This document shows, in pieces, positions 3,301 through 19,055 of a stretch of 19,055 nt of DNA. Source of the stretch: Candidatus Thorarchaeota archaeon (GTDB taxonomy: Archaea > Asgardarchaeota > Thorarchaeia > Thorarchaeales > Thorarchaeaceae). Both the position numbers and the translations under genes were made by a program. The notes beneath the pieces are model-generated. The model was not told the DNA's origin. It was given only the letters and a program-made list of their open reading frames with translations, and did no database searches. Position 1 is the stretch's first letter; every line of letters starts with the position of its first letter. The DNA is taken from positions 1 to 19,055 of the forward strand of contig JBHLRQ010000059.1 in NCBI GenBank assembly GCA_048882385.1, written 5' to 3'.

Positions 3301-6300
3301 TTCCACTTCCAGTTAGATAGTCTCTGAAATCAATTAGAGCACTGATATTGAAGAAGTAGTACGCAGGAGGTGTTGACCGAACAGATGCTTGTGTAAACCT
3401 TGTTGAAATAGTGACTTGAGTATTTGTTGTGGAGTTTTCATAGAATGGTGTAAGATCACCCCAATGGAATTGGATAGTTATTGGGTATGCATCCTCCAGC
3501 TGTGAAGTCAAAATAGTCGAATTTAAGGTAATCCAATAGAAACCATCTGAACCTGTCAATGTATACTGTGAATCGAGTATTAGAGTACCTCCTCCATGTG
3601 TCAGTGTGAGTACAGATTTTGTGAGAGGTATACGTGTACTGTTAACATCGTCAACAGCACTAATCTGAAACTGTACATTGCTTAGGAATGGAGTTGTCAG
3701 CGGCGATCGAGTGACGGATATTGTGGCATATCTTCGAACAACATCGATGGAAACATCCAATACTCGGCTCCGATAAAATGGTGAACCTGACCTACTTGCT
3801 GAAATTGTTATTGTGTACTGTCCGAAATTGCCTAGAGCCAATGTGGATATTCTGACACGATAATCACCAGAACCTAAGGTATCAACCCAGTAGTTGACTC
3901 CTAGTTGCAGTGTTGCATTGGGACAGGTTGCAGTAATTGTTGCACCATCAATTCCAACAAGCGTGCTATCATCGAAGTATGAAATTAACACTTCTGCTTC
4001 TTCAAGGTACACAGCGAGAGATGGAACTTCACTTGTAAGCTGAGTTCTTCTCTGGATTAGTGTGAGATAGAAGAAATCAGTAGCATTATAGCAGAAATTG
4101 GTTCCTGTATACACGATTGATGCGTTGACTTTGAAGATACCAAGAGATGGGAAGATACTCGTGTCAAGAGTTATAGTAAATGTACCATCTCCATTGTTGT
4201 CAACAATGTATGAACCTATGAGGGACACATCAAGAGTAAGATTTCCAGTATTCAAGAGAGACTGATCATCGAGGTCCCTATAGGTGAACTCTATCACCAA
4301 GTCATTCCCATACTCTATTGAAGTGTAAGGACCATGTTCGAGATTCGTATACCGATTCCGGATTGAAATGGATATGGGAATGTTCGTCCTGTTCTGGTAG
4401 TATGGTGTCCCAGCCCATACTACATCAAGATGTAGTGTAAAGGTCCCAACATTATTCCACCAGGTTGTATCAAGTGTTAAAACGAACTCTTGAGTTCCAG
4501 GCAAATAGATTGCACTCAAGACAAGTCCAGTTTCTTGAACTTGATAGCTTAGTTGAGCACCATCTGGAATTGGAAGTCCAGTTAGAACATCAATATATGA
4601 GAAGGTTAGATTCACATTCTCTCCATATGGATTCGTGGGTAATGGGTCCCAAAGAACACTTGTTTGCCTATATCGTGTAAATACTGTGATTGCTAAAGTT
4701 CGGTTCTCATATAGCGGAAGTTGACTTGTAGTCCAATTAGCAAAAATTCGAAGTTGACATCCAATTAGACCGCTTAGATATGATGTGTCGAATGAAATCT
4801 GATATTCACCATTCCCAAGTTCTGTTATCATCATCAGATCCTGAGTAAGAGTTTGACCCGGCGTAATAACTTCGACAAATAGATACACATTGAATGGATA
4901 CATGCTTGTACTGTTTGTGATTCCTGTACTGTTACTCACATCCCAATACACAACAGAGAAAGTAACATTTTCTCCGTATGGTGTAGCGATTGGATTAACA
5001 CCAATGTATAGGTCAGTAGGACTTCCTGCAATCCGTGCACTTACAGATATTACTTTGTTATCGTGTTTGGGTTGAGGACCAGTCCAATTGGCAAAAATGG
5101 ATAGGTCCTTCCAGCCAATTGAACCCCACTGATCTGCTCTAACTCTAATGATGTACTGGCCAGAGATTGACCCATTTACAACCGTGAATTGTAAAGATGG
5201 TACACCAACTGCTTCTGCATAAATCAGAACATCACTTCCTACAATGCCCGAAGAAGTAGTGATGTCGTAGTACATCACATAGATTGTGATTTGACCTGTG
5301 TAAGGTGTTGGTTCTATGGGATTATCTAGAGAGAATGAAGTAAGGTGAGTTATAATATTGACACTGATGTCAAAAGTATGGTTTTGATATGCAAAACGAT
5401 TTACATTGAAAACGACTGTATAGTCCTGAATTTGGTCAGTCTCCTCAGAATAGAATGTTATGTCATACTCTCCTGGAGCACTCGGTACAACAGTGTAATC
5501 TGACCAATTACAGGTGATTGATCCTGCAGCGCCTGATATTGGAAGATCATGATCTGTGTCCCAATATGTCAATGTGATAGTCTGTTCATATCCAACAGGC
5601 AGGGCAATAATACTCTGTGAAACCGAAACTGAAGTGAATATCTGCCGAACCTCCACAAATAGAAGCACTCGTGAAGTTGTGTAATAGTTCTGTTGAGCTG
5701 TGACGATTATTGCATAGGTACCTAAATCCGAATTCCCAGTTGTAATAGTAAGAGTATAGTTACCTGGTTCTCCTAAAACTGGATCGATTGAATAGGATGA
5801 GTCAGTCCAATTACAGAAGAGTTCAGCGTCGCTGATGCCAACACCTTCTGAATCTGCATAGAACAATTCGAGTACTGCATTGTCTCCTCTTGGAACTTGC
5901 ACACCAGGTGCACTTGATGACTGGAGAGTTGTTTCCTCGACCAGATTGATTACAAAGTACCTTTGAAGTGGATCATAGTATTGTTTATTCCAATCTATTC
6001 TAATTACATATCTTCCGGGAATTCCGAGATCTGCTGTATTCAGGACAACGCTGTATTCGCCAGTACCCATATCATTCAGGGATTGAGTTCCAGTTGTCCA
6101 ATTATAGGTGGCAGTTCCTTCTGGAAGAAGCATACCATTGTCAGAGTCGTTTACACCCACTTGAAGGAGCATATCCTGACCATAAGTCAGATTCCTTTCC
6201 CAAGTGAGAACCGACTGTCGTGGGTATGCGATGTACATGTCTGAACCATGTTCGATGGAGAAGGACCGTGAATAGACTCCGATGTTCTCAACAGGACTTC

Positions 6301-8020
6301 CCGAAATTGAGTCATTCACGAATGCTTGTACCGTCCATTCCCCAACCTCTGCGGTATATGCATCCAGGTTCAAATCGGTAGTTTCTGCGATTCCAGAAGA
6401 TACCACTGCATCCAATGTTGTCCATTCAATTCCTAGTGTATTGTAGACTCTGAATGTAACTGTCGCTCCATTGTATGCGGTATCAAGATAGGCTCTAAAG
6501 CGCACATTTTCATCTGCCCGATATGTGGTACTAGTAACCCATGAAGGTCCACTAGACATCCGAAGGTCCTGGATGATGTTTGCAGAGTGACCTGAAATCC
6601 TCCAGAAGCCGTTTTGATACGTTCCAACTACTCCCTCGTAGACTGAAATATTCAGACTTGTTGAAGTAGTTGACCAATATGGAAAGTTGACACCAGGAAA
6701 TCTAGGTTCTGAAACGGTATCAACTATAAGTGTGTCAGATTTGCTTGCATTGAAGTAGAAGTAGTTTGAATATCCATTTGGAACTGCGACATAGTAGTAT
6801 GTTGTCCAGCTCACTTGACTTGCATTTGAGACTGTATAACGAGTTCCTGCACTCAATATATCTGCTTCATACAGAGATGATTGGTCTACTTTTCTTGCAT
6901 ATACCGTCATATCAACAGAGAAAGAAACGCGAATATCCTCGTTTGGATCAGGATTTACTGGAGTTGGAGTCCAACTAAAGGTCGCATTAACCGCACTGCC
7001 ACTCCATGGTATAGTAGCGAACTCTTGGACAGTTCCCAAGCTCCATGTGGCGCCATTGGAAACAGGGATTCCATTCATTTCCAAGTTTACTTGACTGGGT
7101 TGAACACGTGTCTTTATGAAAATCCGAACATTGTCCATTCTTACCTCTGGAAAAAGTTGAGGATTGCTTCCAAAGGACCTTGTAGTTCGCATACCAATTT
7201 GAAGGATGAAGTTTGAAGAAGTAATGAGCGATGGATCTGCCTCAATCAATCCAGTTGAGTACCAAGTTATTTGAGCAAGCACATCACTGAACTGCATATG
7301 CCAGAGGTGGTTTGATACATTATCAGCAGACCCTACCTGAGCATAAAGTTCCCAGAATCCTATCGGTAGCCCACCCCAATTATCATCAACCCAATAATCA
7401 AGGGCTACACCAACCCAGGTTACTTCTCCTCGGTTGGTGTTGATAGTTTGTTGAGCATATTGCCTATCACCAAGATCATGACGGAAGTAACCACCATCCA
7501 AAACACCATCCATTTGGAAACTGACATAACCTCCAGTTATTGTACTAGACATAGGGTTTGTGTGAGTACCAACGTCATCAGTGCCAAGTGTCCAGTCTGC
7601 TGTCGAATCGAAACCAGGATTCGTTAGATAGGTTCGATTCTCCTGTAAGTCGCTTACACTTAGAGACATTTCCGTTCCCTCCCAGAGTGGACCAAGGGGA
7701 ACTGAAACGGTTTCAGTTGTGGTAGTATTTGAGGTATAATACGCAAGCTCCAAATCATCATGGTGGTCAGTTCGTTGTCCATACTCAGATACAACTAGAG
7801 GAGACCCTTCACCTACTATTGTCGTTGGAACCTCAGATAGTGTGAATGATTCAAGAACCTCATCAGGTCCCACCTCGATATACTGCCCATCTCCTAGATC
7901 CACCAGTTCAGAACTTGAATTGGTAGTATTAGAAACACCATCCCGCGTATTAGAAGAACCGAAACTCAGGATTAGTGAAGCTAAAACAAGAAATAGTACT
8001 AGGTTCCTTTTGACTTTCAT
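326..8020 (-). CDS. Giant (2564 aa) single-pass cell-surface glycoprotein/adhesin-like protein: signal peptide, beta-rich head, ~17 tandem Ig-like repeats, TM helix, ~190-aa helical cytoplasmic tail
   Basis: Long uninterrupted ORF with a CAGGAGA Shine-Dalgarno-like motif upstream and signal peptide MKVKRNLVLFLVLASLILSFG. ~100-aa repeats recur with Y-x-D...I-x-GA...D-x-G-x-G-x-Y motifs, and there are many N-x-S/T sequons. TM segment ALVVGFQYGTIMILAIAALGALYF (~899-970) is followed by basic residues and a charged helical tail. Function is inferred from architecture only. Confidence 0.92.
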   Translation of the reverse strand: MKVKRNLVLFLVLASLILSFGSSNTRDGVSNTTNSSSELVDLGDGQYIEVGPDEVLESFTLSEVPTTIVGEGSPLVVSEYGQRTDHHDDLELAYYTSNTTTTETVSVPLGPLWEGTEMSLSVSDLQENRTYLTNPGFDSTADWTLGTDDVGTHTNPMSSTITGGYVSFQMDGVLDGGYFRHDLGDRQYAQQTINTNRGEVTWVGVALDYWVDDNWGGLPIGFWELYAQVGSADNVSNHLWHMQFSDVLAQITWYSTGLIEADPSLITSSNFILQIGMRTTRSFGSNPQLFPEVRMDNVRIFIKTRVQPSQVNLEMNGIPVSNGATWSLGTVQEFATIPWSGSAVNATFSWTPTPVNPDPNEDIRVSFSVDMTVYARKVDQSSLYEADILSAGTRYTVSNASQVSWTTYYYVAVPNGYSNYFYFNASKSDTLIVDTVSEPRFPGVNFPYWSTTSTSLNISVYEGVVGTYQNGFWRISGHSANIIQDLRMSSGPSWVTSTTYRADENVRFRAYLDTAYNGATVTFRVYNTLGIEWTTLDAVVSSGIAETTDLNLDAYTAEVGEWTVQAFVNDSISGSPVENIGVYSRSFSIEHGSDMYIAYPRQSVLTWERNLTYGQDMLLQVGVNDSDNGMLLPEGTATYNWTTGTQSLNDMGTGEYSVVLNTADLGIPGRYVIRIDWNKQYYDPLQRYFVINLVEETTLQSSSAPGVQVPRGDNAVLELFYADSEGVGISDAELFCNWTDSSYSIDPVLGEPGNYTLTITTGNSDLGTYAIIVTAQQNYYTTSRVLLFVEVRQIFTSVSVSQSIIALPVGYEQTITLTYWDTDHDLPISGAAGSITCNWSDYTVVPSAPGEYDITFYSEETDQIQDYTVVFNVNRFAYQNHTFDISVNIITHLTSFSLDNPIEPTPYTGQITIYVMYYDITTSSGIVGSDVLIYAEAVGVPSLQFTVVNGSISGQYIIRVRADQWGSIGWKDLSIFANWTGPQPKHDNKVISVSARIAGSPTDLYIGVNPIATPYGENVTFSVVYWDVSNSTGITNSTSMYPFNVYLFVEVITPGQTLTQDLMMITELGNGEYQISFDTSYLSGLIGCQLRIFANWTTSQLPLYENRTLAITVFTRYRQTSVLWDPLPTNPYGENVNLTFSYIDVLTGLPIPDGAQLSYQVQETGLVLSAIYLPGTQEFVLTLDTTWWNNVGTFTLHLDVVWAGTPYYQNRTNIPISISIRNRYTNLEHGPYTSIEYGNDLVIEFTYRDLDDQSLLNTGNLTLDVSLIGSYIVDNNGDGTFTITLDTSIFPSLGIFKVNASIVYTGTNFCYNATDFFYLTLIQRRTQLTSEVPSLAVYLEEAEVLISYFDDSTLVGIDGATITATCPNATLQLGVNYWVDTLGSGDYRVRISTLALGNFGQYTITISASRSGSPFYRSRVLDVSIDVVRRYATISVTRSPLTTPFLSNVQFQISAVDDVNSTRIPLTKSVLTLTHGGGTLILDSQYTLTGSDGFYWITLNSTILTSQLEDAYPITIQFHWGDLTPFYENSTTNTQVTISTRFTQASVRSTPPAYYFFNISALIDFRDYLTGSGIPGASVSLACENSTTFTGWILDNGDGSYRILVDTTTLSGLGRYFFTANLTWYGSPYYTNVTNLSFSVVVNSVSTTLSFTLPQGVTYYLGDEIRANITYTAIEFGVGIPGADIWSNWNMTYPTIATINPIDLGVYEMVIQTSGMDAGLYSFMVNASKFLHQNQSILADILLSAIPVQIELIFDPTNPFWGDSIDFQANVTDARNGAPVSGAYVNLTISSINIDMTEVAPGIYNATVQSWQIVAGEHTITVRSVLLNYESRQRDFQIRIDKVASKIAGSIDPLTTVNGLSVSIEVDYLIYYNNTAIEDGYVTYSWIGGSGQLTWSVLDGKYVVDFIVAGVDVGSHQILIQASSDNYKSVSMQLTLEITELTSNLVAISDFIVTVNYRDIANITVYLNNTDLNVPVTGAYVSYGVGPLVGNLSELAVPGYYSALVNTSYLSVQEWPVFINSDNPGYTPSQIQFTLNVEVVDTEIVLITPATLGGYYGEEVTFLLFYNDTHANLGITGAITNYTLEQFRGSLIDLGDGTYSLTLNTSLVLAGSVPHDISISFRKDNFRFATTLVKLRVDPIRTQVIGSTEAEFPVYDDYTTLFGFWDDLHDTWITDGFATATWDFGTVLLTNLNNGSYAFGPDEAALATDLQDSAMPYRIRISISRGNYSLGEIEFFLTIREIATEVVASSLPTPIFVGRLFLINFTYLDFDHSIPITDAEITVISSSNLATTDLIREFDYDIDHGNGTYTLAFRAPDLAYYSLRIIFSKVDYQNYQVEFDIYTELTPEQEALVVGFQYGTIMILAIAALGALYFRVLSVPKLLRIIRGMIRTLSRGRIPKPADVPVRRSMLLKMMNEDLKRIGLHKTIEDVSLSTVDVTVMDVEDLLQELAMVVGLTPDDVDTLRQDLDKMRPSERAGFINEVLRQERARRAKELAEAERLAEEGTPPEVLEERLSEEELLHLKERLLKMGIEETEADLMIEQARNLSKAEIDALLEEIGGMEE
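990..6250 (-). repeat. About 17 degenerate protein-level tandem repeats (~100 aa, Ig-like beta-sandwich) forming the stalk of the 2564-aa protein
   Basis: Repeat starts counted by eye, e.g. LTYGQDMLLQVGVND, VPRGDNAVLELFYAD, LPVGYEQTITLTYWD, TPYGENVTFSVVYWD, NPYGENVNLTFSYID, IEYGNDLVIEFTYRD, GYYGEEVTFLLFYND, IFVGRLFLINFTYLD. No obvious DNA-level identity between units. Boundaries are approximate. Confidence 0.8.
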
Positions 8021-8124
8021 ATTGAGGTCTCCTGAATGGGCATGTAGAATACCAAGTCGACTGGATGATAGGGTAGGGATTTACCTCTATATGAATAGAT
8101 GTGCGCTATAGAAATCGTCAAACC

Positions 8125-8140
8125 TTTCGATAAATCGAAA
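8125..8140. promoter_or_regulatory. Inverted repeat TTTCGAT-AA-ATCGAAA; possible operator or terminator-associated element
   Basis: Perfect 7-bp arms with a 2-nt spacer, just past the double stop (TGA TAG) of the protease gene. It lies ~30 nt upstream of a weak TATA-like TTCATATA (minus strand, 8095-8088) in front of the giant gene. Confidence 0.35.
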
Positions 8141-8146
8141 CGACTA

Positions 8147-10285
8147 TCAGCGTTTGCGGTTCATTACAAAAATGCCTGCAATGATGACTACACTGGCTAC
8201 TCCAAGTGCTGCAGCAAGAGGTATTAGTAGATCCGTTAGGAAACTACTTGTGAACTGAACAACACCACCCACCTCAACATTCATTCCCCAATCGTACGCT
8301 CTAATCCATAATGTCAGGTTTGATTCATAATCAAGTGGTTCTAAAACCACAGACCAATTTGTGCTTACATTTGAACATAGATACTTGTGAATAGGTCCAC
8401 CATCCACTTGTACGAAGAGAGTGACATTCTCAATTCCAGATAGATCATCTGTGACATCAGCCCAGTAAAGAAAATCTTGGGCTCCAATATTCTCAGGAAT
8501 AGTACCCCAGTCATTGATTGTTGGAGGTGTTGTATCTAAGATAGAAGAATACACACGTCGAATCCAACCTTTTGCATCTAAGAGTGCATCATATGCCGCC
8601 ATCCAATCCATTTGATTATAGAATTCTCGTGCTGCATTGAAAGCTTCAGCAGCTCTCTGTTCTGCGAGGTCAGTTTCAGGTCTATCGTAGAGGGTTTGTG
8701 GTCGATGAAGCAATTCATCCCAAAGTAATGCCTCCATTTGGTCAAGGTATGTTCCTTGCACCCAGTTCTTATCAAAGGTGGATGTTCCATTATGGACCGC
8801 AAAGTAACCCATGGGACTCCATGAGAAATCACTGGAATATCGTTCATGCTGCCAAGAATGATGGAAGCCTATTGCATGCATTGTTTCATGGAGTTGAACC
8901 ACTGAAATACCATCCTTGGGAGTGACACCATCTGGGCGATAATATCGTTCCCAAGATTTCCAAATGACAGTCTGTCCATTGCCTCCAAGCCCAGTATAAG
9001 TCCCTCCTGCATGCATCTCCATTTGTTTCTTGATGAATATTACACCAAAAACATTGATGTTATCATCATCCGCAACGTACTGAGGTCTCATGACATCATA
9101 GATAGCATCAAACATTGGATACCCCTCAGCTACTGTCGTACCATCTGGTTCAATGGTAGCATACATCCAGAACAATGATGACCAAGCTGACTCCTCACTG
9201 ATATCTAGGAATTCAATATCAACTGTCCAATCGATAAACGGATAGAGTTCTGTCAAGTGTGCTCTCTGCATCTCAGCATCTGTAATCCACCTTAGACTCT
9301 CGACTGAAATACCAGCATCAACATCCATGCAGAAAACCAACCCCTTTAGCGTTCCAGATTGTACATAACTTGCTGGTTGATGTTGATATGGAAAGAAGAG
9401 TTGGTTAATTGGATCCCATACACATTCGTGCAGGTAGACATTCAGCGCATCAACATCTGCAGGGATGGCTAGGTTGAGAGAAGCGACTTTGTCTTCGAGA
9501 TCTTCTGTCCAGAAATCATACTCCGTTAAAAATTGCTCACTCCACCATATTCGGCACCATCTCAAATACCATTGATGAGCACTCGGGTCCACCACGTATA
9601 TGTTGTAGCGACCCCCAAAGAAAGGATAGTCCATCGTAACATCTGTGTTGAGAGCATTGTCCCATTCCAACCGAAACCAGTCCTGCTTCTCGCCGGTATC
9701 GGGATCTTCGGGATGATAGTCATACCAATGCTCAAGACTATGGTCCAGAGAGTCAAATACTGAAAAGTTCACTAAATAGAGAGTGTAGCCCAAATCAGGT
9801 TTCACAGTAAAGGGGTTCTCTACAAGCCAATCCTCAACTGCATATGCATCAATCGCTCTTCCGCTACGTGGATAGAAGATCCTCTGAGGTTCATCCAAGT
9901 GACTCTTTTGATACGAAAGAGCGGTCTCATTTAAGCGAGTTCCAGTATCAGTACCATTGATAGAATTATCAAGCATAACTTGTTGTAGGTCATTCAAAAA
10001 TGTGGAATCAGCATATTCGATAGTATATTCGATGTTGTATGTTATATCAACAGATTCAGCAGAATAAAATCGAGTGGTTGGCAGTCCTGTGAGAAGGATA
10101 GTTTCATCAATCAATACAGGATTATAACCAACGACTACTATCTTGGCTGACCAATCGCGCTCAATTGAAGGAGTGTCTTGACTGAGAGTATTTGTTACAT
10201 TGGCATCTGTTGTAATTCTATCATTTGCCATTAGAGTAATGAAAAGTAAGAGAAATGCTATAGAAATGACAACAGCGCGACGCAT
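8147..10285 (-). CDS. Secreted, C-terminally membrane-anchored zinc metalloprotease (metzincin clan)
   Basis: HETMHAIGFHH (8890-8858) fits HExxHxxGxxH, with a downstream Met-turn-like SPMGY. N-terminal signal/anchor MRRAVVISIAFLLLFITLMA. A DTTPPTI-initiated Ig-like domain precedes a C-terminal TM with basic tail (MNRKR). Start moved from 10300 to ATG 10285 because GGGAG lies just upstream of it. Confidence 0.88.
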   Translation of the reverse strand: MRRAVVISIAFLLLFITLMANDRITTDANVTNTLSQDTPSIERDWSAKIVVVGYNPVLIDETILLTGLPTTRFYSAESVDITYNIEYTIEYADSTFLNDLQQVMLDNSINGTDTGTRLNETALSYQKSHLDEPQRIFYPRSGRAIDAYAVEDWLVENPFTVKPDLGYTLYLVNFSVFDSLDHSLEHWYDYHPEDPDTGEKQDWFRLEWDNALNTDVTMDYPFFGGRYNIYVVDPSAHQWYLRWCRIWWSEQFLTEYDFWTEDLEDKVASLNLAIPADVDALNVYLHECVWDPINQLFFPYQHQPASYVQSGTLKGLVFCMDVDAGISVESLRWITDAEMQRAHLTELYPFIDWTVDIEFLDISEESAWSSLFWMYATIEPDGTTVAEGYPMFDAIYDVMRPQYVADDDNINVFGVIFIKKQMEMHAGGTYTGLGGNGQTVIWKSWERYYRPDGVTPKDGISVVQLHETMHAIGFHHSWQHERYSSDFSWSPMGYFAVHNGTSTFDKNWVQGTYLDQMEALLWDELLHRPQTLYDRPETDLAEQRAAEAFNAAREFYNQMDWMAAYDALLDAKGWIRRVYSSILDTTPPTINDWGTIPENIGAQDFLYWADVTDDLSGIENVTLFVQVDGGPIHKYLCSNVSTNWSVVLEPLDYESNLTLWIRAYDWGMNVEVGGVVQFTSSFLTDLLIPLAAALGVASVVIIAGIFVMNRKR

Positions 10286-10371
10286 AGTTAAAACTCCCAT
10301 CTAATCCATATTAACAAACTGGTTCAAGTATTCGAATGGACTCGAACACCTTTAATGATTGGCGCGTTTCT

Positions 10372-10379
10372 AATATATA
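10372..10379 (-). promoter_or_regulatory. Putative TATA box for the metalloprotease gene
   Basis: TATATATT on the minus strand in the AT-rich divergent intergenic region, ~90 nt upstream of the ATG at 10285. Confidence 0.4.
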
Positions 10380-10387
10380 CACACATA

Positions 10388-10395
10388 TTATATTA
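10388..10395 (+). promoter_or_regulatory. Putative TATA box for the candidate ncRNA
   Basis: TTATATTA ends ~24 nt before the first base of the closing stem (10419-10421), which is typical archaeal TATA-to-TSS spacing. The BRE is weak. Confidence 0.5.
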
Positions 10396-10418
10396 ATAGC
10401 TAATAGTAAGTTGATATA

Positions 10419-10537
10419 GAGGCGTCGGCCAATTGAAGTTACATCGGTTCTCCTCGACAAGTCTTTGAGATTGTCGCACTCGTTTCCGCAGGCGAGTGCA
10501 GTGATGCATCGATCCCCATTTGCTTCGCCGACGCCTT
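10419..10537 (+). ncRNA. Candidate structured non-coding RNA of unknown family (~118 nt; orientation tentative)
   Basis: Closing stem AGGCGTCGGC (10420-10429) / GCCGACGCCT (10527-10536). Inner helices GAAGT/GCTTC (10435-10439/10522-10526) and ATCGGT/ATCGAT (10443-10448/10508-10513). Abutting hairpins CGACAA..TTGTCG (10455-10476) and GCACTCGTTT-CCGC-AGGCGAGTGC (10476-10499). It is a GC-rich island next to an AT-rich promoter region, with a TATA-like box upstream and a pyrimidine-rich tail downstream. Confidence 0.6.
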
Positions 10538-10559
10538 CTCCTCACCCATTTCTTCTGTT
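10537..10559 (+). terminator. Pyrimidine-rich tract, possible archaeal terminator of the candidate ncRNA
   Basis: TCTCCTCACCCATTTCTTCTGTT directly follows the closing stem. There is no long pure T run, so support is weak. Confidence 0.3.
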
Positions 10560-10621
10560 ATCGTCAATCAGTTACTCTTAAATCGCGGAGCAATTCCTCG
10601 CCAATGGCCGGAGACACCTTC

Positions 10622-12058
10622 ATGACACCTGCAAAGAAACCCACAATATCTGAAATCCTCGATATCAAATCAGTCGTGGTAATAGGAGTGTCTGCGAGCA
10701 TGGGATATTACTGGGCACACTCTATGTTACAGTGGGAGCACGATCTCAAGGTGTGGTTTGTTTCCAGGCGTGGAGGAGAAGTCCTGGGTCATACTATTCT
10801 TTCAAGCATCGAAGAAATCCCTGGGAAGATTGACTACGCCATAATTAGAGTTCCATATGGAGTAGTACCAGAAACTCTGAGGGAGTGTCACAAAAAAGGG
10901 ATACGTTGTGTTACAATATTCACTAGTGGATTTTCCGAACTCGGATCAGAAGAGGGAAAACAGAGAGAAATCGAAATCCGCGAGATACTTGATGAAACAG
11001 GGATGAGAGCATTCGGACCGAACTGTATGGGATTAATGTATCCAAAGATTGGGTTCGCGTTTATGCCTTCAATAAAAAGACGCTCTGGAGATGTTGGATT
11101 CCTATCCCAATCTGGCGGGGTAGCGATAACAACTTACACAGCTGGAGTAGAATCAGGCGTTGGTTTCAGCAAAGTGTTCAGTTTTGGAAACCAAGTGGAC
11201 ATCACACCACAAGAGCTGTTTGGTTATTTTTCAGAAGACAATGAAACTAAGGTAGTGGGAGCATACATCGAGGGGGCAAAGAATGGAAAAAGTGTCTTGG
11301 ACTCGATGAAACAACTCGCAATCAAAAAACCTCTTGTTGTTCTGAAAGGCGGTCGCTCAACAGAGGGAGCGCGTGCCGCATCGTCGCATACAGGAGCACT
11401 TGCTGGGAGCAGAGAGATATGGAATGCTGTCTTCCGACAAGCCAATGTTTTGACTGTTGACACTCTTGAAGATATGATTGCTACTCTCAGTGTTTTTTCC
11501 TTAAGCCCTAGACCTGCTTCAAGAAATGTCGGACTTGTTGCAATTAGTGGCGGGACCAGTGTAGTACTCACTGATCTCTGTATTGAAAAAGGATTGCACG
11601 TTCCAAGGACATCTGAAGATACGATCAAAAAACTCGATCCCCTAATTCTCGATGTGGGTACAGGTCTTGGCAATCCAATAGATCTTGCAGCAGATTACTA
11701 TCAGGACCAAACCACTTCAGAAGTGATTCGTCTAGCTGGGAGTGATCCAAATTTCGATTCACTAATTATAGGAGCAGATGTTCACAACATGTACCAAGCA
11801 GCCTCTATCATGGGGGCAGCTGATGTGCTAGTGGAATTCTGGAAAGTCATGGCAGATGCAGGCAGGAAAGTAGTGGAAAAAGAAAAGAAACCAGTTCTCG
11901 TCGCAATCCCTGAAGTGGCATATACAGAACAGAGAGCTGATGCTTGGAATGTTTTTGTCGAAAGTGGACTTCCAGTTTTTAGAAACATCAATGAGGCAGT
12001 AAGCGCACTTTCTCGAGTTTGCGATTACTATGAAAAGCAAGAGAACAGAGGTTTCTAA
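10622..12058 (+). CDS. NDP-forming acyl-CoA synthetase alpha subunit (AcdA-like, acetate--CoA ligase family), ~478 aa
   Basis: CoA-binding Rossmann start SVVVIGVS, GPNCMG, SQSGG, FSFGNQVD, phospho-His loop KGGRSTEGARAASSHTGALAG, ISGG and NPIDL motifs. Start moved to ATG 10622 because GGAGA lies at 10610-10614 and a TATA-like CTTAAAT at 10577-10583; ATG 10604 is an alternative. Substrate unknown. Confidence 0.88.
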   Translation: MTPAKKPTISEILDIKSVVVIGVSASMGYYWAHSMLQWEHDLKVWFVSRRGGEVLGHTILSSIEEIPGKIDYAIIRVPYGVVPETLRECHKKGIRCVTIFTSGFSELGSEEGKQREIEIREILDETGMRAFGPNCMGLMYPKIGFAFMPSIKRRSGDVGFLSQSGGVAITTYTAGVESGVGFSKVFSFGNQVDITPQELFGYFSEDNETKVVGAYIEGAKNGKSVLDSMKQLAIKKPLVVLKGGRSTEGARAASSHTGALAGSREIWNAVFRQANVLTVDTLEDMIATLSVFSLSPRPASRNVGLVAISGGTSVVLTDLCIEKGLHVPRTSEDTIKKLDPLILDVGTGLGNPIDLAADYYQDQTTSEVIRLAGSDPNFDSLIIGADVHNMYQAASIMGAADVLVEFWKVMADAGRKVVEKEKKPVLVAIPEVAYTEQRADAWNVFVESGLPVFRNINEAVSALSRVCDYYEKQENRGF

Positions 12059-12060
12059 TA

Positions 12061-12678
12061 TCAGACTTTGACAACCCAATTTACTAGCTCAACAGCCATT
12101 GGATTCTCCGACATCAATTGGTCTCTATACTCAGGATTTTTCAGTTTGATCCAGACATGCTGCATTTCAAAATCAAACCCGATTATCCTAATTGAAGCCT
12201 CCAGGGGAGATGGTCTAAACGCGATATATCCTAGAAGAAGAGAGAGGAACAAGATTACAACATATGAATACACCCACGGGCTTACGGGACGTCCAGCCCA
12301 ATAATCACTTCCAGCAAACATCAGAGCAAACACCGAGATACCAGAAATGACAGACGCGAGAAAGAGTGAGAGACCTCTCAATCTGAATTCAGCATCATCT
12401 GACATCTCATGGTCTTCACATACATCAACCAGAAAACTCTTGATTTCAGCATTTTCTAATCTACTCTTGCTTTTCCAATCGAATTGTGGATCCCAATGAG
12501 GTCTAAGCCAGACTTTTCTCCGAGGTGTAGTTGAGATGCGAGCATGTTTTTTTGCGGGAGCTCCACAAACTGGGCACGTTTTTGGAAACCTAACTCTATT
12601 GACCTTTGCTCGAACAATGGGATCATCAAAGAATTGCCGCTGTCTTGTAGCAGTCAGGTTCAACAACCTCAGATTCAA
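12061..12678 (-). CDS. Hypothetical membrane protein with CxxC...CxxH putative zinc finger and two TM helices
   Basis: CPVC and CEDH motifs, then hydrophobic segments GLSLFLASVISGISVFALMFAG and WVYSYVVILFLSLLLGYIAF. Start uncertain: no ATG, and the true start may be TTG/CTG at ~12657-12666 after GAGGT. Confidence 0.8.
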   Translation of the reverse strand: MNLRLLNLTATRQRQFFDDPIVRAKVNRVRFPKTCPVCGAPAKKHARISTTPRRKVWLRPHWDPQFDWKSKSRLENAEIKSFLVDVCEDHEMSDDAEFRLRGLSLFLASVISGISVFALMFAGSDYWAGRPVSPWVYSYVVILFLSLLLGYIAFRPSPLEASIRIIGFDFEMQHVWIKLKNPEYRDQLMSENPMAVELVNWVVKV

Positions 12679-12696
12679 TTATCAACAGAGTATCCT

Positions 12697-12704
12697 AATT
12701 TAAA
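12697..12704 (-). promoter_or_regulatory. Putative TATA box for the Zn-finger membrane protein gene
   Basis: TTTAAATT on the minus strand in the 52-nt gap between the LRR gene stop and this gene. Confidence 0.5.
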
Positions 12705-12730
12705 GTATCGAAGCAGGTAATATGGCAACA

Positions 12731-13864
12731 TTAGCTGGAGTACGCATTTTCAACAACAAACAAAATGTGTTTTTTCAAACTAGCAGATGCGCGTATTGGA
12801 TCATTACTAACACATTTTGCAATTGATTCAACTTCTTGTGTCTTAAGTTCAAATCCAAGGTCATCGAGGCTCTTTCTAATTTGGCCGAGTCCATCTCCAA
12901 AGTATTGCGTTCCTATACCAAGTGCTTCCAACATTTTGAAACCGTAGAAACTCAACCATAGTGAGTTCATTAGAGCAATGCTGCCTTTTGTTTGAACAAT
13001 AACATTCTCCATTTCCTGTTTCCTTGCTTCAACTATTTTGGGAATGAGCTTTGATGCGCGAGTCTTCTTCATACCTTCAATGTCGAGGAAGAGTGTTGAA
13101 CCACCGGTCTCAACCTGCTCATCAAGTAACTCAATAGCCCTTGAGAATATCGATTCTCGAGCAGTGGTGTAATCCATATCTTCGGAAGTATCATTCAATA
13201 AATTCCACGGGTCTCCATCATACCCTGCAAGCTCGTTTAATGAAAGAGCCATCAAGAAACCTCTCTGCAGAGCAAACCAATCACTCTCTGGTACCTGGTC
13301 CATGATAGTTCTGATCCGCTGATAAATCTCCGACCATTCTATCTTCTTTGCTAGAGTTTCGTAATTGATCCAAATTATCACTGGGGTTGCAGTCCACGGA
13401 GCTTTATCAGGACGCACAAGCAAGAATCTCTCCTTGAGCTGATGGTTAGTGAGAGAAAAGCGAAGGATGTGATCTGCAGAGATCACGACAGAGGAATCAA
13501 GCTCAATGTGAGCCCTAAGAAATATCGGTGTCAAGTCCAATCCAGGAAGACGGTTGTTCTTGAGATTCAGATGGCTCAGAGCTTTGCAGTTGGCAAGAGG
13601 CCACAAGTCGAGGGATGTTAGATGATTATTTTCAAGAATCAAAGTCATAATCGTTTGATTTTGAGACAATGGAGAGAAGTCAACACTCTCAAGCATGTTA
13701 CTACTCAAATTTAGGGTTTCCAACTGCGTGCATTTACTGACTTCTGATAGATCCACTTTCTGAGCAGCTCTCATTGTCAGATCGATCTTTCGGTCAGTAC
13801 ACTGGAAATTTCGCTCTTCCTGTCTACCAAGGTGACCCCAAGATTTGATGGTAATCTCTTTCAT
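12731..13864 (-). CDS. Leucine-rich repeat protein (3 clear 24-aa LRRs) with a helical C-terminal domain of unknown function, ~377 aa
   Basis: LETLNLSSNMLESVDFSPL / IMTLILENNHLTSLDLWPL / LSHLNLKNNRLPGLDLTPI match LxxLxLxxNxLxxLDLxPL with a 24-residue period. No signal peptide or TM. Start moved to ATG 13864 (AGGT upstream, TTTATCAA at 13900-13893) to avoid the 68-nt overlap with the upstream gene; ATG 13906 and 13891 are alternatives. Confidence 0.85.
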   Translation of the reverse strand: MKEITIKSWGHLGRQEERNFQCTDRKIDLTMRAAQKVDLSEVSKCTQLETLNLSSNMLESVDFSPLSQNQTIMTLILENNHLTSLDLWPLANCKALSHLNLKNNRLPGLDLTPIFLRAHIELDSSVVISADHILRFSLTNHQLKERFLLVRPDKAPWTATPVIIWINYETLAKKIEWSEIYQRIRTIMDQVPESDWFALQRGFLMALSLNELAGYDGDPWNLLNDTSEDMDYTTARESIFSRAIELLDEQVETGGSTLFLDIEGMKKTRASKLIPKIVEARKQEMENVIVQTKGSIALMNSLWLSFYGFKMLEALGIGTQYFGDGLGQIRKSLDDLGFELKTQEVESIAKCVSNDPIRASASLKKHILFVVENAYSS

Positions 13865-13925
13865 TTGCTTATCGACCTGACTGGAAAGCATTTTGATAAA
13901 GGGCATATTGACATTTCGGCAATCC

Positions 13926-16900
13926 TCAGAGAATAGGAGGAGGAGGAAGTCCCTTCTCAGCGACAATGAGGAATCCGTTATCAATCGCTTCAAGCACCAT
14001 CATGTGAGCTTTGCGTTCAGAGAAACCAAGCAAGATGACTGATTTGATTATTGATTCAGGAGATACTCCGTGATCTATATGCATACCCTTCATGGCTTGA
14101 GCTACAGGAGAGAGATGGCTTGGAAGGGTTTTTGTAACACCCACATATTTTTTCAAGAGCGCTCCATCGAAATGTTTCTCAAATATTGGATTGAACAATT
14201 CATTCATCGAGTCAATGCGTTTTGGAGTTTGAAGTACTTGTTTGGTCGCATCTTCATCATGGTCAAAGAATCCTCCAATTTCCATACCAAATGATTCAAG
14301 CTGATGCTTCTGAGTTTCTGATGCACTTTCTACTGTTATGAGTGCACAAATGAAAGATTCAGTCTGCAGAGCCATGATCATTTCAGTTATTGGTATGACG
14401 GTCCATTTTGGTTCATCCATTGAAAACTCGGTTCTGAATTGAGAGATTGCAGATATCAACGAACTCAATATAGTTTCTTGAAATCCTCCCTTGAGAATCC
14501 GGGAATATACAGGAAGACCCACCGAACTATGAATAACAAGTACACCTATCAAATTCTTTGTGTCATCAATTCTATTTGCTAGTGAAAGAAGTTCCAGATT
14601 CCAACGAGCTGTTGTGGACATATAGAAACGACGAATTGCTGTTACTCCTACAACGAGTGAGAAAACAGCTAGAGCTCCTAGTATACTTGCCCTGACAGCA
14701 ACAGCGAACATAGGTTCGGACGATGGAACTAATATATTGATGATGATTTCATTTGCATCAAAGAATGATAAACTGACACTCACAACCATTGTGAAAGTCC
14801 CAGTTCCAATCATTGAAGAATTGAAATCTGCTTCAAACCAACCTCTCGCAAGGTTTGGATTGAAAACAACGTCCTCGGTAGACCAATTGCCAACAACATT
14901 TGCTCCATCCAGAATAGGATTGCCATTATCTTGGTCATAAACGTAAATTGCAGCAGTGAATTGCTCACCAAGTTCAACCTCGATATTTGGCGTATGAGCA
15001 ATAATGTTCAGTCTGTGTCTGACTTCAAATGCCGAATTGCCAAAGGCAACCTCACTACCATTTGACCAAACAACACTAACCATCCATATACCTGGAGTTG
15101 AATTGCTGGGTCCAAGCGTGATTCCGGAACTTACCACAACTGAGCTATTCACATTTTCAATCTCTTCAGTTGACACGATGATTCCTGAAGAATCATACCA
15201 AAGCAGTTCAAGATTGTCTACCGTTGCAAGATAAGCATCATCGGTACCAAGATTGACCTCACACCGAATCAAATCGCCATTCCTAAAGATTGATTCATCT
15301 TGCCAAATTGAACCGGATTCTCCAATCTGAGTTGAGATTGATTTTGCATAGTTCGGGCTCTCAAGAGTAATACTCCACCAACCTACTGAATCAACCACAC
15401 CTGAAGGAACCTCAATAAAATATGAATTAACTATCGACTGATCCGTTACATCAAAACCAAATGGATCAGCGATAGATGCATTCTCCCAATCAGATGGAAA
15501 ATAAACTTTGAAACCAAGATCTTTCACATCTTGATATGATTGGATGTATGTGTAGAGTGAGAGTGCAATACTATCACCAAACTGAGCGGAAAAAGCAACA
15601 CCAAGTTCCTCAAGGCCAGTATTTGAGGAGGATTTACACAATTTGGTCATCCTACTGACTCTCGCAGAGTACTCGAATGATACACTTGTATTGGTGGAGA
15701 ATGTGAAAGGTATTGTAGTAGTATTCCAGTAATTGAAGTCAGCATAAATTGAACTAGTCCCATATTGACCAACCAAAGGAATTGATCCAAGTGGTTGTAG
15801 GCCAACTTCTAGTTGAGTGTCTTCGCACGCAAGAGTTTCCGCACCAACTAGTGAAAGGTCATCAATCATGAATGTGATGAATTCGCCATTAGCTGAATCC
15901 CCATCAAGATCGGGATCATTTTCAGGAATATCAATTGAGGAACCAGGAGTTAGAACCTTCAAGCTCAACCTAGCATCGAATGTAGAAGGAGCCTCAGGTA
16001 TTGTGACTGATAGGGGACCTATAGAATACCAGACACCTCTTTGTGTTATATTGGTAGGATCAATGGACCAATTCCAAAGAACAGCGGACCCATCAAGTAT
16101 CTCGAAAGAAAACTCAAAGATGTCGCTGAAATTCTGTCCAATCGGTCCTCTCTGATACAGGTAACTGATACCAAAATCAAACTCTTCGATAGATTGACTA
16201 TTGTCTATTGTCTGATACCAGTATATTCTGGTGCCATTATAATGACGATAATCAATCGGGTCTCCAACTGCAAACCCTTCATTTTCTAGAGTGATGTACT
16301 TCAGGCCAGTATCGACATAGGATGAACGTTGCCTTCCGTTTGTATACGGATAGCTATAGGAAAAAAGTTCACGGCGCGTGTTCCATCCAGTTGGAGCGTA
16401 GGCTCCATCACCAGACCAGTCAACATTGACACCTGGAATTCCAGTTTCAAAGGACCCATATTGAGCGTAGAGTCTTCTCAGATCTCGAACATTCACTTCT
16501 ATCTCTTCGGCTCGCCACTCCTCACCTCCTATATATACATCATGACTATAGGATGTGTCATCAATGGCTACTAGATTAGCACTCCCCGCAGAGTCTTCCA
16601 GATCATCCTCAAACATGTAATAATGAGATAAACCTGGTTCGGTCCCCGACAGAGTGATGTTGTAATCCCCTATTACATCCTCAAGATTTCTTTGTACTGT
16701 ATAATATCTGAATTCATCAACATGACCATCTACTCTGCCTAGTGAATATGCTCTCGAATTCATGATATCGTTCTCAGTATGATAACCAGAGAGTGTACCG
16801 GTCCAACTCAAAGTGGAGGAATCCTCGACAGGCTCATGATTCTCATCACCCCAATAGAAACTGATGGAGTTCAAATCCTCGTCCCATGTAATTGCTATGA

Positions 16901-17438
16901 AATACCAATGGTTCGGAATCCAATCAGATTTGGTCCCCTGAAATGTGTTGTCAGACCCCCAATCAACCATCAATCTATCACTTGACCATCGTGTTTCGAA
17001 GTCTTGGTCTTGTCCCCAGAAACGACCATGTGGAGCAGATATATCCCATTTCAGCCAGAGAGATATGGTTCCAGCTGGAGAACCAAAATCAGCAGAACCC
17101 CCTGCACCCACTAAGAAGTATCCTCCGTCACAATCAGCAGAGAAGGAATTACCTGGACTGCCTAGAGGTAACCAGGCTTCGGAACCTAGAGAGGGTGCGA
17201 CATCTGTTCGACCAACTATGTACTCAGATGTCCCTGCCATTGAACCAATATGTTCGATATCGACTGGGTCTAAAGTGCCAATATATGTGTCAGAACTAAT
17301 TAGTTCGTGCGAGATGGATGGGACATCCGCCACCGACAGTGAATAATGAATATCAGAAGATTGTGTGCCAAAAATCATGGGTAATGGAATCCAGACTAAC
17401 AGCATACATAGTAGAATGACTGTCCATCTTCTCTCCAA
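13926..17438 (-). CDS. Single-pass surface protein (1170 aa): signal peptide, LamG/concanavalin A-like domain, beta-rich ectodomain, TM helix, cytoplasmic longin-like domain
   Basis: TTG start preceded by GGAGG and a hydrophobic N-terminus. LamG motifs GTISLWLKW, WYFIAITWD, GHVDEFRYY, LSHYYMFED. TM ASILGALAVFSLVVGVTAI followed by RR. Cytoplasmic LIGVLVIHSSVGLPVYS...ILSSLISAISQFRTEF...FICALIT resembles the Asgard longin/roadblock-type pattern. Domain calls are from motif recognition, not an HMM search. Confidence 0.88.
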   Translation of the reverse strand: MERRWTVILLCMLLVWIPLPMIFGTQSSDIHYSLSVADVPSISHELISSDTYIGTLDPVDIEHIGSMAGTSEYIVGRTDVAPSLGSEAWLPLGSPGNSFSADCDGGYFLVGAGGSADFGSPAGTISLWLKWDISAPHGRFWGQDQDFETRWSSDRLMVDWGSDNTFQGTKSDWIPNHWYFIAITWDEDLNSISFYWGDENHEPVEDSSTLSWTGTLSGYHTENDIMNSRAYSLGRVDGHVDEFRYYTVQRNLEDVIGDYNITLSGTEPGLSHYYMFEDDLEDSAGSANLVAIDDTSYSHDVYIGGEEWRAEEIEVNVRDLRRLYAQYGSFETGIPGVNVDWSGDGAYAPTGWNTRRELFSYSYPYTNGRQRSSYVDTGLKYITLENEGFAVGDPIDYRHYNGTRIYWYQTIDNSQSIEEFDFGISYLYQRGPIGQNFSDIFEFSFEILDGSAVLWNWSIDPTNITQRGVWYSIGPLSVTIPEAPSTFDARLSLKVLTPGSSIDIPENDPDLDGDSANGEFITFMIDDLSLVGAETLACEDTQLEVGLQPLGSIPLVGQYGTSSIYADFNYWNTTTIPFTFSTNTSVSFEYSARVSRMTKLCKSSSNTGLEELGVAFSAQFGDSIALSLYTYIQSYQDVKDLGFKVYFPSDWENASIADPFGFDVTDQSIVNSYFIEVPSGVVDSVGWWSITLESPNYAKSISTQIGESGSIWQDESIFRNGDLIRCEVNLGTDDAYLATVDNLELLWYDSSGIIVSTEEIENVNSSVVVSSGITLGPSNSTPGIWMVSVVWSNGSEVAFGNSAFEVRHRLNIIAHTPNIEVELGEQFTAAIYVYDQDNGNPILDGANVVGNWSTEDVVFNPNLARGWFEADFNSSMIGTGTFTMVVSVSLSFFDANEIIINILVPSSEPMFAVAVRASILGALAVFSLVVGVTAIRRFYMSTTARWNLELLSLANRIDDTKNLIGVLVIHSSVGLPVYSRILKGGFQETILSSLISAISQFRTEFSMDEPKWTVIPITEMIMALQTESFICALITVESASETQKHQLESFGMEIGGFFDHDEDATKQVLQTPKRIDSMNELFNPIFEKHFDGALLKKYVGVTKTLPSHLSPVAQAMKGMHIDHGVSPESIIKSVILLGFSERKAHMMVLEAIDNGFLIVAEKGLPPPPIL

Positions 17439-17472
17439 TACCTGGCCTCCAGTGATGCATTTGTGGAATTCT

Positions 17473-17484
17473 ACTCTCGAGAGT
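17473..17484. promoter_or_regulatory. Perfect 12-bp palindrome ACTCTCGAGAGT upstream of the 1170-aa gene; possible operator
   Basis: Lies ~35 nt upstream of the TTG start and downstream of an AT-rich minus-strand TTAAGATATA element (~17523-17514). Confidence 0.35.
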
Positions 17485-17602
17485 GTAGACTTGGGTGTCA
17501 GAGTATTATTCAGTATATCTTAATTGACTGGCTAACGTATTTCAGCTATTGGTGTCTTAACTTGGACATGATATGTGGAGAGGTTTACTAGATGGAGCTG
17601 AT

Positions 17603-19054
17603 TTAAATGAGACCAACTTTCTCATTGAAATCAGTAATCAATGTATCAATTTTAGGAGTCATCCCTTGGATGTTCTCCCAGTATCTTGGATAATCATACC
17701 ACTGTGCATTCAACTCGTCCAGTTCAAAACCCTGTTGCTCAATCCAAGTGAAATACTTGAGATGATGGATTCGCTTTCTATCATAGTGACCAAGCTCAAT
17801 CATAGCATCAGTCTTCTGTCCCAATAGATGAAGATGGTAATCCTTGATGGAGTCCTTCTCAGTATACTTGCCATGAGCTTCTCGAGCTTCAGCTATTCTT
17901 GATTGATACATATCCATAGAGTCGGTGAATATCGTTAGGATGACATCATTCTTTGTGAGTTCAAAGTATTTCGCAAATTTGATTGACATCAGAAGATTCG
18001 CTATACTTGATATTCCTAATAGACCAAGCTGAGATACAATCTTTTCAGGAGCACCAATCTCATTAATCAGGTAATTCCGACCTGCCTCTTCATTGAAAAG
18101 TCGAATCAAATTCATTGAATCATTATCATCGATTGCAATGATCATGTCAGTGTTTCGTACATTATGGATCCAAGGCACATGCTTGTCACCAATTCCCTCA
18201 ATGCGATGAGCACCGTAGCCATTCAACCATAGGGTTGGACATTGGACAGCTTCCCCGGCTGCTATTTTCGATGAGGGGTAGATTTGCTTCATGTAGTCTC
18301 CAGAACCAATTGTTCCAGCAGAACCAGTTGTCAGACACAATCCCCGGTAGGTATCAGTTCCTAGTTCCTTTTCTAGGACTTCCTCCATCGCATGACCAGT
18401 GATATCATAGTGCCATAGATAGTTGCCAAACTCGGCAAACTGATTGAAGATGAATACATCTTCGCGAGTCCTTCTAAGCTCCCAGACTTTGTCGTAGATT
18501 TCCTTGACATTGCTCTCACTGCCCGGAGTTTTGATGATTTCACCACTGACAGTCGACAGCCAATCAAAACGCTCCTGTGACATCTCTTCAGGTAGTATTG
18601 CAATGCTTTCACAAGCGAGAAGGGAGGAGTCATATGCTCCACCTCGACAATAGTTTCCTGTTGAGGGCCAGACTGCCTTATCTTTTGTAGGATCAAATTG
18701 ACCTGTTACGAGTGGTGGAACAAGACATCCAAAAGCTGCACCAACTTTGTGAGCTCCTGTGGGAAACCACTTCCCGACTAGAGCTATAATACGAGCTTCA
18801 ACTCCAGTCAGTTCAGAAGGAATTTCCATGTAGTTAGCAAGTTGCTGGAATTGACCACCTTTGTCAACTGGCTTATTCTTCCATGTGATTCGGAATAGAT
18901 TCTGAGGAACAACATCCCAGAGTTCAATATTCCTCAATTCGTCCTTGATCCTTTGTGGAGTCTTGGATGGATCTCTCATCTGTTCAAAAGTGGGAATTAC
19001 GATATTCCTTTCACGGCACCGTTCCACAGTTCTCTCAAGTTGGGTCTCATTCAT
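17603..19054 (-). CDS. PLP-dependent enzyme, fold type II (cysteine synthase/threonine synthase/tryptophan synthase beta superfamily); possibly 5'-truncated by the window edge
   Basis: Schiff-base lysine motif KWFPTGAHKVGA, substrate loop PSTGNY, phosphate loop TTGSAGT, and IEGIG. The ATG is at the window edge, so the real start may lie further upstream. Specific reaction not assignable. Confidence 0.88.
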   Translation of the reverse strand: MNETQLERTVERCRERNIVIPTFEQMRDPSKTPQRIKDELRNIELWDVVPQNLFRITWKNKPVDKGGQFQQLANYMEIPSELTGVEARIIALVGKWFPTGAHKVGAAFGCLVPPLVTGQFDPTKDKAVWPSTGNYCRGGAYDSSLLACESIAILPEEMSQERFDWLSTVSGEIIKTPGSESNVKEIYDKVWELRRTREDVFIFNQFAEFGNYLWHYDITGHAMEEVLEKELGTDTYRGLCLTTGSAGTIGSGDYMKQIYPSSKIAAGEAVQCPTLWLNGYGAHRIEGIGDKHVPWIHNVRNTDMIIAIDDNDSMNLIRLFNEEAGRNYLINEIGAPEKIVSQLGLLGISSIANLLMSIKFAKYFELTKNDVILTIFTDSMDMYQSRIAEAREAHGKYTEKDSIKDYHLHLLGQKTDAMIELGHYDRKRIHHLKYFTWIEQQGFELDELNAQWYDYPRYWENIQGMTPKIDTLITDFNEKVGLI

Positions 19055-19055
19055 T

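Follow-up and report, generated by a model that had tools for sequence, protein, structure and literature searches.

A candidate free-standing small RNA gene, closed by a conserved helix, in one family of Thor-type Asgard archaea

The element and its locus

The stretch of DNA analysed here, called the window throughout, comprises 19,055 nucleotides (nt) of a Candidatus Thorarchaeota archaeon (GenBank assembly GCA_048882385.1, contig JBHLRQ010000059.1, positions 1 to 19,055 of the forward strand), and the element in question lies at positions 10419–10559, between a divergently oriented gene for a protease-like protein, UP717, and the gene of an ADP-forming acyl-CoA synthetase. An earlier note, made from the sequence of the window, had proposed a multi-helix RNA with promoter-like and terminator-like signals of its own at this place, either free-standing or a cis-regulatory leader of the synthetase. 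On comparison with related genomes we consider that the element is very probably (at a rough probability of 0.9) an independent, free-standing structured small RNA gene, present in single copy and confined to a single family among the Thor-type Asgard archaea. This is argued for by a fixed spacing between promoter and stem, a U-rich end, a single syntenic copy and a changing gene downstream. The features of the locus are as follows, where "the genus" is that of the window and SD stands for Shine-Dalgarno sequence.

8147–10285, − strand: UP717, the divergent neighbour, 712 residues, with a signal-like N-terminus, the motif HETMHAIGFHH (HExxHxxGxxH, metzincin-like) and a C-terminal membrane anchor
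10308–10314, − strand: TATA-like box of UP717 (TTAATAT on that strand), 22 nt upstream of the ATG at 10285 and kept in the genus alignment
10371–10397, + strand: promoter block of the RNA, with the TATA box TATATTA at 10389–10395; the block is nearly invariant within the genus
10419–10429, + strand: 5' arm of the closing helix P1, core GCGUCGGC at 10422–10429
10443–10448, + strand: 5' strand of helix P2 (AUCGGU), partner 10508–10513; closes a three-way junction and is supported within the genus only
10455–10476, + strand: hairpin P3, 10456–10463 paired with 10468–10475
10476–10499, + strand: hairpin P4, 10476–10483 paired with 10492–10499; loop UUCCGCAG kept in the genus
10508–10518, + strand: 3' strand of P2, then a conserved single-stranded C-run (CCCC at 10514–10517)
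10527–10537, + strand: 3' arm of P1, core GCCGACGC at 10527–10534
10537–10559, + strand: single-stranded pyrimidine-rich 3' tail, UCUCCUCAC at 10537–10545 (invariant in the genus), then a U-rich tract, the putative terminator
10573–10585, + strand: promoter-like box TACTCTTAAATCG of the synthetase, separate from the RNA; kept in the genus and present also in genomes G001 and G012
10622–12058, + strand: ADP-forming acyl-CoA synthetase (alpha-type), SD GGAGA at 10610–10614; Pfam Succ_CoA_lig and CoA_binding; TIGR02717 at 323.9 bits, below its cut-off

The closing stem is as the earlier note had read it: residues A10420–C10429 (AGGCGUCGGC) pair perfectly with G10527–U10536, ten base pairs to which G10419–U10537 adds a G-U pair. 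Residues 10419–10537 of the + strand fold as this stem around a three-way junction, and the two abutting hairpins that the note described, 10455–10476 and 10476–10499, do meet at G10476. Its two further nested helices fared differently, in that P2 (10443–10448 with 10508–10513) is supported in the genus, whereas the middle helix of the window's minimum free energy (MFE) structure (10436–10440 with 10522–10526) is not retained by the genus consensus fold. The sequence TTATATTA at 10388–10395 stands 26 nt upstream of GCGUCGG (10422), and a pyrimidine tract (10537–10559) follows the stem on its 3' side. The transcript would start at about 10418–10422 and end in the U-rich tract at about 10548–10560, and the length of the RNA in the window genome is put at about 125–140 nt. 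The C-run at 10514–10517 has a predicted unpaired probability of 0.84.

The MFE of the + strand is −45.9 kcal/mol against −33.4 ± 3.7 kcal/mol for shuffled sequences (z = −3.37), with one of 200 shuffles as good, so the element folds more stably than shuffled sequence. The opposite strand folds comparably (z = −3.50), and folding by itself therefore cannot assign the strand. Only one locus of this kind is present in the host assembly (G000, 3.7 Mb).

Conservation within the genus and across the family

By BLASTN the region is present in 17 of the 27 other genomes of the window's genus, and a covariance model finds the element in 21 of the 27; the model was built from an alignment of 17 sequences of the genus, referred to as A1. 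Standard pairs make up 93.7% of the 539 cells of A1, a share that falls to 24.7–39.8% when the 3' partners are slid, and 17 of the 32 pairs change on both sides; the observed values were reached in none of 500 column shuffles. When RNAalifold was run unaided on the genus alignment it retained 27 pairs, of which 15 show compensatory changes. An alignment of 22 sequences, which was fitted to the covariance model and is hence biased toward structure, has 92.3% of its cells paired and 23 of the 32 pairs changed on both sides. By these comparisons helices P1, P3 and P4 are well supported, while P2 rests on less. Both-sided changes occur in seven of the eight pairs of P4 and in four of the eight pairs of P3 in A1 (seven of eight for P3 in the model-fitted alignment), so that the abutting hairpins covary, whereas for P2, with 93.1% of its cells paired, such a change is seen in one of six pairs in A1 and in four of six in the model-fitted alignment.

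Pairing also distinguishes the two strands. With the + strand taken as the RNA, canonical cells number 637 of 690 (92.3%), against 567 of 690 (82.2%) for the − strand, and the genus alignment contains 87 G-U cells and 17 A-C cells, an excess that places the RNA on the + strand, as the G-U pairs of the window had led the earlier note to argue. The 5' arm of P1, which is G/U-rich, is nearly fixed, and the 3' arm varies between A and G and between C and U as wobble pairing on the + strand permits.

A strict signature, ATATWA-N22-28-GCGTCGG-N60-125-CYGRCGC, was scanned over 400 genomes of the phylum. It occurs in 42 of the 86 genomes of the family, exactly once in each, and in one of 314 genomes outside it, at a GC-rich, chance-like locus; the reversed pattern used as a control occurs in one of the 400. 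With looser finds added, the RNA is present in 14 genera out of the family's 16, and the strict and looser scans did not find it in genera g10 and g36 or in the sister family. A second model, R2, gave five weak matches in other genera, three of which directly adjoin UP717 orthologues (51–52% identity) and have no synthetase downstream. The R2 matches G069:C268 and G065:C14 were rejected as false: only stem and tail match, no UP717 lies near, and the true copies of those genomes lie elsewhere. Among the 80 genome-contig loci listed from a loose pattern, four are true members by the covariance model, and the remaining listed loci, one Lokiarchaeum match included, were set aside as chance. One true member, flanked by UP717 and the synthetase, is found among the 80 metagenome-contig loci listed from the signature.

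The promoter-like signal proposed in the earlier note is borne out by its position: a TATA box, mostly TATATTA, stands 23–26 nt before GCGUCGG in all 42 homologues, which represent 14 genera. By eye, A/T boxes akin to this one and to that of UP717 also precede tRNA genes of the window genome. The eight core pairs of P1, of the general form GCGUCGGY with RCCGRCGC, are canonical in 327 of 328 cells (41 sequences, 14 genera), and the helix ends sharply, the pair just outside the core being canonical in 22 of the 41 and the pair just inside in 20. In 38 of the 42 homologues the eight residues of the 5' arm read GCGTCGGC or GCGTCGGT. Variation in P1 is mostly between A and G or between C and U in the 3' arm and yields U-G or G-U pairs (U-G at pair 4 in 11 of 41 and at pair 8 in nine of 41); full compensations number three (GCAUCGG/CCGAUGC, GCGUCAG/CUGGCGC and GCGCCGG/CCGGCGC). 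P1 forms in the MFE structure of 39 of the 41 homologues.

The interior, which spans 80–113 nt with the stem arms included, is unalignable between genera. It is G-poor (0.08–0.26) and mostly C-rich (0.16–0.41), with the C-over-G bias in the same direction in 39 of 42, and is predicted to form one to four hairpins (two in 24 of 41) along with long open stretches. A C-run of at least four residues occurs in 21 of the 41 homologues; inspection by eye also shows a recurrent ACAUC-like motif towards the 5' side and, towards the 3' side, a C-run that is often AUCUCCC. The pyrimidine tract that the earlier note took for a terminator-like signal persists across genera as an unpaired tail, with a pyrimidine content of 0.40–0.95 over 20 nt and a mean predicted unpaired probability of 0.97 (41 homologues). 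Of 41 tails, 25 contain CTCCTC or CCTCC within 30 nt, compared to 2.8% of random genome windows, and the shorter motif CTCC or CCTC is present in nine of the 14 genera. Runs of at least three T within 40 nt occur in 33 of 41, and of at least four in 24 of 41. As judged from sequence, what persists across genera is limited to the spacing of the promoter, the 8-bp stem and the C/U-rich, predicted unpaired 3' tail.

In genus g4 (loci L183, L184, L210 and L216) the tail CCUUACUG has a possible pairing partner downstream, CAGUGAGG, across an A-rich loop, and a conserved GC-rich stretch, GGCGAUCGGUGGCUCUUUCACCGGGUCACCACCGCC, follows the tail-pairing site. The transcript of this genus may be longer, or a second element may follow the RNA.

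Possible roles and the neighbouring genes

We tentatively favour, at clearly less than even odds, a role in trans in which C/U-rich segments of the RNA pair with SD-like sequences. The terminal helix would protect and mark the RNA, which would work through its accessible C/U-rich segments, namely the 3' tail (often with CUCCUC or CCUCC) and the internal C-run; these would pair with purine-rich SD-like sequences of mRNAs and so lower translation. The back-to-back gene UP717, apparently leaderless and without an SD, would escape such SD-directed control. CCUCC is the core of the anti-SD sequence and is present in the tails of several genera. The start regions of the window genome show a classical SD signal, the 5-mers AGGAG, GGAGG, GGAGA, GTGAG and GGTGA being enriched 3.7–4.7-fold at −15 to −8 (3–4.7-fold with GAGGA included), and the complement of the window tail, GGUGAGGAGA, is built from five enriched 5-mers (AGGAG, GGAGA, GTGAG, GGTGA and GAGGA). 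SD usage was read from the start regions, as the assembly has no 16S gene and hence provides no anti-SD sequence.

Several observations weigh against an RNA gene acting in this way. A search for RNA sequencing runs for positions 9900–11300 of the window named none, and what speaks for the gene is comparison between genomes. When 11,912 crudely defined start regions of the host assembly were scanned for duplexes with the tail, no hit was outstanding or interpretable, and the tail motif is absent within 30 nt in genera g2, g3, g6, g7 and g34. P1 is fixed in sequence and not merely in its pairing, with only three compensatory double changes in 41 sequences, which SD pairing leaves unexplained. 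Six of the 27 other genomes of the genus, including G001 at 97% completeness, are without the RNA, which is thus dispensable.

The fixed sequence of P1, set beside an interior that drifts, argues for a sequence-specific molecular partner. The main rival reading, possible if on balance doubtful, is that the RNA is protein-bound and forms the core of a small ribonucleoprotein, P1 and the 3' overhang binding a lineage-specific protein while the interior serves as spacer or display loop, in a design like that of Y or vault RNAs. The constancy of the helix over 14 genera, the near-absence of non-canonical cells and of double changes in its eight pairs, and its sharp ends all fit this reading, as does the layout of terminal stem, pyrimidine-rich loop and U-rich 3' end. 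Against it, Ro60/TROVE is absent from all 87 genomes of the class, and the linked neighbour encodes a secreted protease-like protein, with no RNA-binding gene alongside. Binding by a protein is compatible with pairing in trans and does not exclude it. That the RNA represents a new functional class, either a stable, helix-capped carrier of anti-SD mimics that, set divergently beside a leaderless gene, would shift translation from SD-led to leaderless mRNAs, or the RNA core of a Thorarchaeal ribonucleoprotein that would recognise the GCGUCGG/CCGACGC helix, strikes us as quite unlikely.

The gene most often syntenic with the RNA is that of UP717, a surface metalloprotease-like protein. No Pfam or NCBIfam family matches UP717 significantly, with weak matches to Astacin (E 0.93) and DUF7743 (E 0.007) and none in NCBIfam, and its Atlas cluster carries the label Candidatus Thorarchaeota, "hypothetical protein". 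Orthologues of about 710–770 residues are present in 60 of the 87 genomes of the class and in all 17 genera. In the genera examined, a TTAATAT-type box lies about 22–30 nt upstream of the UP717 ATG by hand count, and from this closeness to the ATG the UP717 mRNA would be leaderless. Of 39 UP717 upstream regions scanned for the stem arms (at most one mismatch per arm and at least six of seven pairs), 23 carry them, divergent from UP717 and 92–311 nt from the estimated gene start, and some of these places are also matched by a covariance model.

This linkage raises the reading, which we regard as unlikely, that the RNA is a regulator dedicated to UP717, acting either by way of divergent transcription out of the promoter region that the two share or by pairing with the UP717 mRNA. 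The divergent arrangement is found at all loci of the genus (g1) whose contig reaches the gene, and the two stay linked in 14 genera, across which the gene downstream of the RNA varies. Cognate RNA-mRNA pairing, on the other hand, is not better overall than non-cognate pairing (mean z −0.3 to −0.6, driven by GC-rich genomes, so that GC content confounds the comparison), and seven of 14 cognate pairs score below average over the first 150 nt. Nor is the link absolute: in G093 (genus g3) the RNA stands before the synthetase and the 5.2-kb locus gives no UP717 match, and in G076 the RNA lies on a contig without a UP717 match, while a UP717-like gene is retained together with its promoter in G001 and G017, where a different divergent gene occupies the place of the RNA. 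A separate likeness concerns the opening 8 nt of the UP717 reading frame (AUGCGUCG, 10285–10278, − strand), which in genus g1 resemble the P1 5' arm at 10421–10428 and complement the 3' arm. It was dropped, as beyond AUGCG, which is forced by Met-Arg, the likeness is lost in other genera.

The other reading of the earlier note, in which the element is a leader that regulates the ADP-forming acyl-CoA synthetase in cis, now appears very unlikely, as does a riboswitch of that gene. It draws on the window's genus, where the synthetase follows 70–110 nt downstream of the RNA on the same strand in 22 of 22 loci, in the order UP717 (divergent)-RNA-synthetase (one contig ends before UP717), and on genus g3, where four genomes have the synthetase downstream and three of them the full order; the tail's UCUCC could also pair with the synthetase's GGAGA. 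The gene context, which the note had named as the means of telling cis from trans, nevertheless varies between genera, the synthetase following the RNA only in g1 and g3. No synthetase was found within the available 1–2 kb downstream in genera g4, g5, g7, g8, g9, g31, g32, g34 and g35, and in g8 a convergent subtilisin-like gene comes next, with no co-oriented gene within about 2 kb. Conversely, G001 and G012 of the window's genus have a synthetase orthologue (67–68% identity) with the proximal box and no RNA. A variable T-rich spacer and the box TACTCTTAAATCG separate RNA and synthetase, in keeping with the note's impression that the synthetase has a separate TATA-like element and SD. Aptamers conserve their junctions and loops, and here only the closing helix is kept across genera; together with the existence of the synthetase without the RNA, this makes a riboswitch or leader unlikely.

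Upstream of the synthetase, G001 and G012 carry another conserved A/T-rich block, (T)ACTAGTATATGAATAGATGGTGA..TCCATATA (L174, 1190–1290; L173, 3160–3260, − strand), which may be another promoter or element. An apparent hairpin, CGAGG...CCTCG, between the box TACTCTTAAATCG and the SD GGAGA has uncompensated mismatches and is probably not structural.

A conserved 8-bp inverted repeat around a variable segment of about 100 bp could also mark an element acting at the level of DNA, such as the terminal inverted repeats of a miniature inverted-repeat transposable element (MITE), an invertible segment or two operator half-sites. We give this only a slight chance, since the element occurs once per genome at a syntenic place and not in the many dispersed copies by which the earlier note would have known a MITE, changes in the arms keep G-U pairing and not DNA symmetry, no flipped copies are seen and the C-over-G bias is constant in direction, and the interior hairpins covary. 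A small protein gene on the − strand, with GGUGAGGAGA as SD before an ATG, is suggested by an ATG after the purine-rich motif in 13 of the 22 genus members and has a negligible probability, since the ATG is missing in nine of the 22, the window included, the frame of the conserved ATCGATGC block with respect to the ATG is 0, 1 or 2 depending on the member, with products ending after 3–42 residues, indels of 1–3 nt lie inside the region, and the pairing statistics favour the + strand. A short + strand reading frame from the AUG at 10505 was likewise discarded, as by inspection indels put the tail in another frame in relatives.

Other open reading frames of the window lie at 326–8020, 12731–13993 and 13926–17438, all on the − strand, and include products of 2564 residues, 1170 residues and, for a leucine-rich-repeat protein, 420 residues. 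The window genome has 42.7% G+C, and its assembly holds only 22 tRNAs and no 16S gene. ARAGORN reports a tRNA-SeC on contig C4 of this assembly, consistent with the selenocysteine use reported for Asgard archaea. Contigs C101, C200, C215, C218, C223 and C247 are far GC-richer than 42.7% and contamination-like, the stated contamination of the bin being 4.94%.

Asgard archaea are the closest known relatives that eukaryotes have among the prokaryotes, and as far as we know hardly any non-coding RNAs have been described for them. Literature searches on small RNAs of Asgard archaea and Thorarchaeota, which covered listings and the openings of abstracts, yielded no description of this RNA and no catalogue of Thorarchaeal small RNAs. 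All the comparative evidence fits the free-standing, undescribed archaeal small RNA that the earlier note had envisaged. A family-wide RNA gene with an easily searched signature (promoter spacing, invariant 8-bp helix, hypervariable interior, pyrimidine-rich tail) offers a concrete object for RNA biology in the Thor lineage and a new model for RNA family libraries. The neighbours of the RNA, steadily a surface-protease gene that appears to be leaderless and, in two genera, an ATP-yielding acyl-CoA synthetase, point to the control of peptide fermentation.

Comparison with known RNAs

The earlier note had recognised in the element none of the RNA families that it named, and the searches agree. 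Rfam 15 gives no gathering-level match over the whole window; the region 10250–10700 gives four matches at E 3–8.8, far below gathering, and eight homologous loci from eight genera give no match at E ≤ 0.1. ARAGORN finds no tRNA gene in the window, and the hairpin abutting the 3' arm is not kept between genera. The RNA shares with archaeal small RNAs (C/D, H/ACA, tRNA-like, signal recognition particle RNA and RNase P) an archaeal promoter whose TATA box lies about 25 nt upstream, and a product that is structured and stable, but no tRNA was found and no Rfam model matched. C/D box RNAs carry the motifs RUGAUGA (C) and CUGA (D), whereas in relatives the window's C-box-like GUGAUGC is replaced by AGAGAUGC or AAAGAUGC, and the genus has no conserved CUGA; unlike in H/ACA RNAs, there is no ACA-type box at a fixed place after the stem. 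Like a riboswitch or leader, P1 in the window closes a multi-helix junction upstream of a metabolic gene, but the class of the downstream gene is not constant, junctions and loops are not kept between genera and the downstream gene has a separate box. MITEs and invertible segments differ in copy number and in strand, the element being found once per genome with the same strand bias in 39 of 42.

In its presumed mode of action the RNA resembles bacterial C-rich sRNAs that act in trans, such as RsaE/RoxS (RF01820), which are likewise small and free-standing, are served by a promoter and a terminator of their own, and have accessible single-stranded C/U-rich motifs suited to G-rich ribosome-binding sites. 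The C-rich motifs are present here, predicted unpaired and complementary to the enriched SD 5-mers, and the scan with the tail named no target. The only Rfam hint over the tail, at 14.3 bits against a gathering threshold of 79 (E = 8.8), indicates that the RNA is not a member of that family, from which it also differs in its archaeal host and in an invariant terminal helix that joins both ends.

Y RNAs and the Y-like RNAs of bacteria, partners of Ro60/Rsr, are about 100 nt long and have a terminal stem of conserved sequence formed from both ends, a variable pyrimidine-rich interior and a short U-rich 3' tail. Here too both ends form a terminal stem of conserved sequence around a variable interior, a likeness of design only, since P1 lacks a conserved bulge and no Rfam model of Y RNAs matched; the Y RNA-binding domain family TROVE/Ro60 (PF05731) is found in none of the 87 genomes of the class in a search whose controls were positive in two of 14 named genomes. 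The RNA is best regarded as a new family of a familiar general kind, the small structured non-coding RNAs, distinguished by an unusual pattern of conservation.

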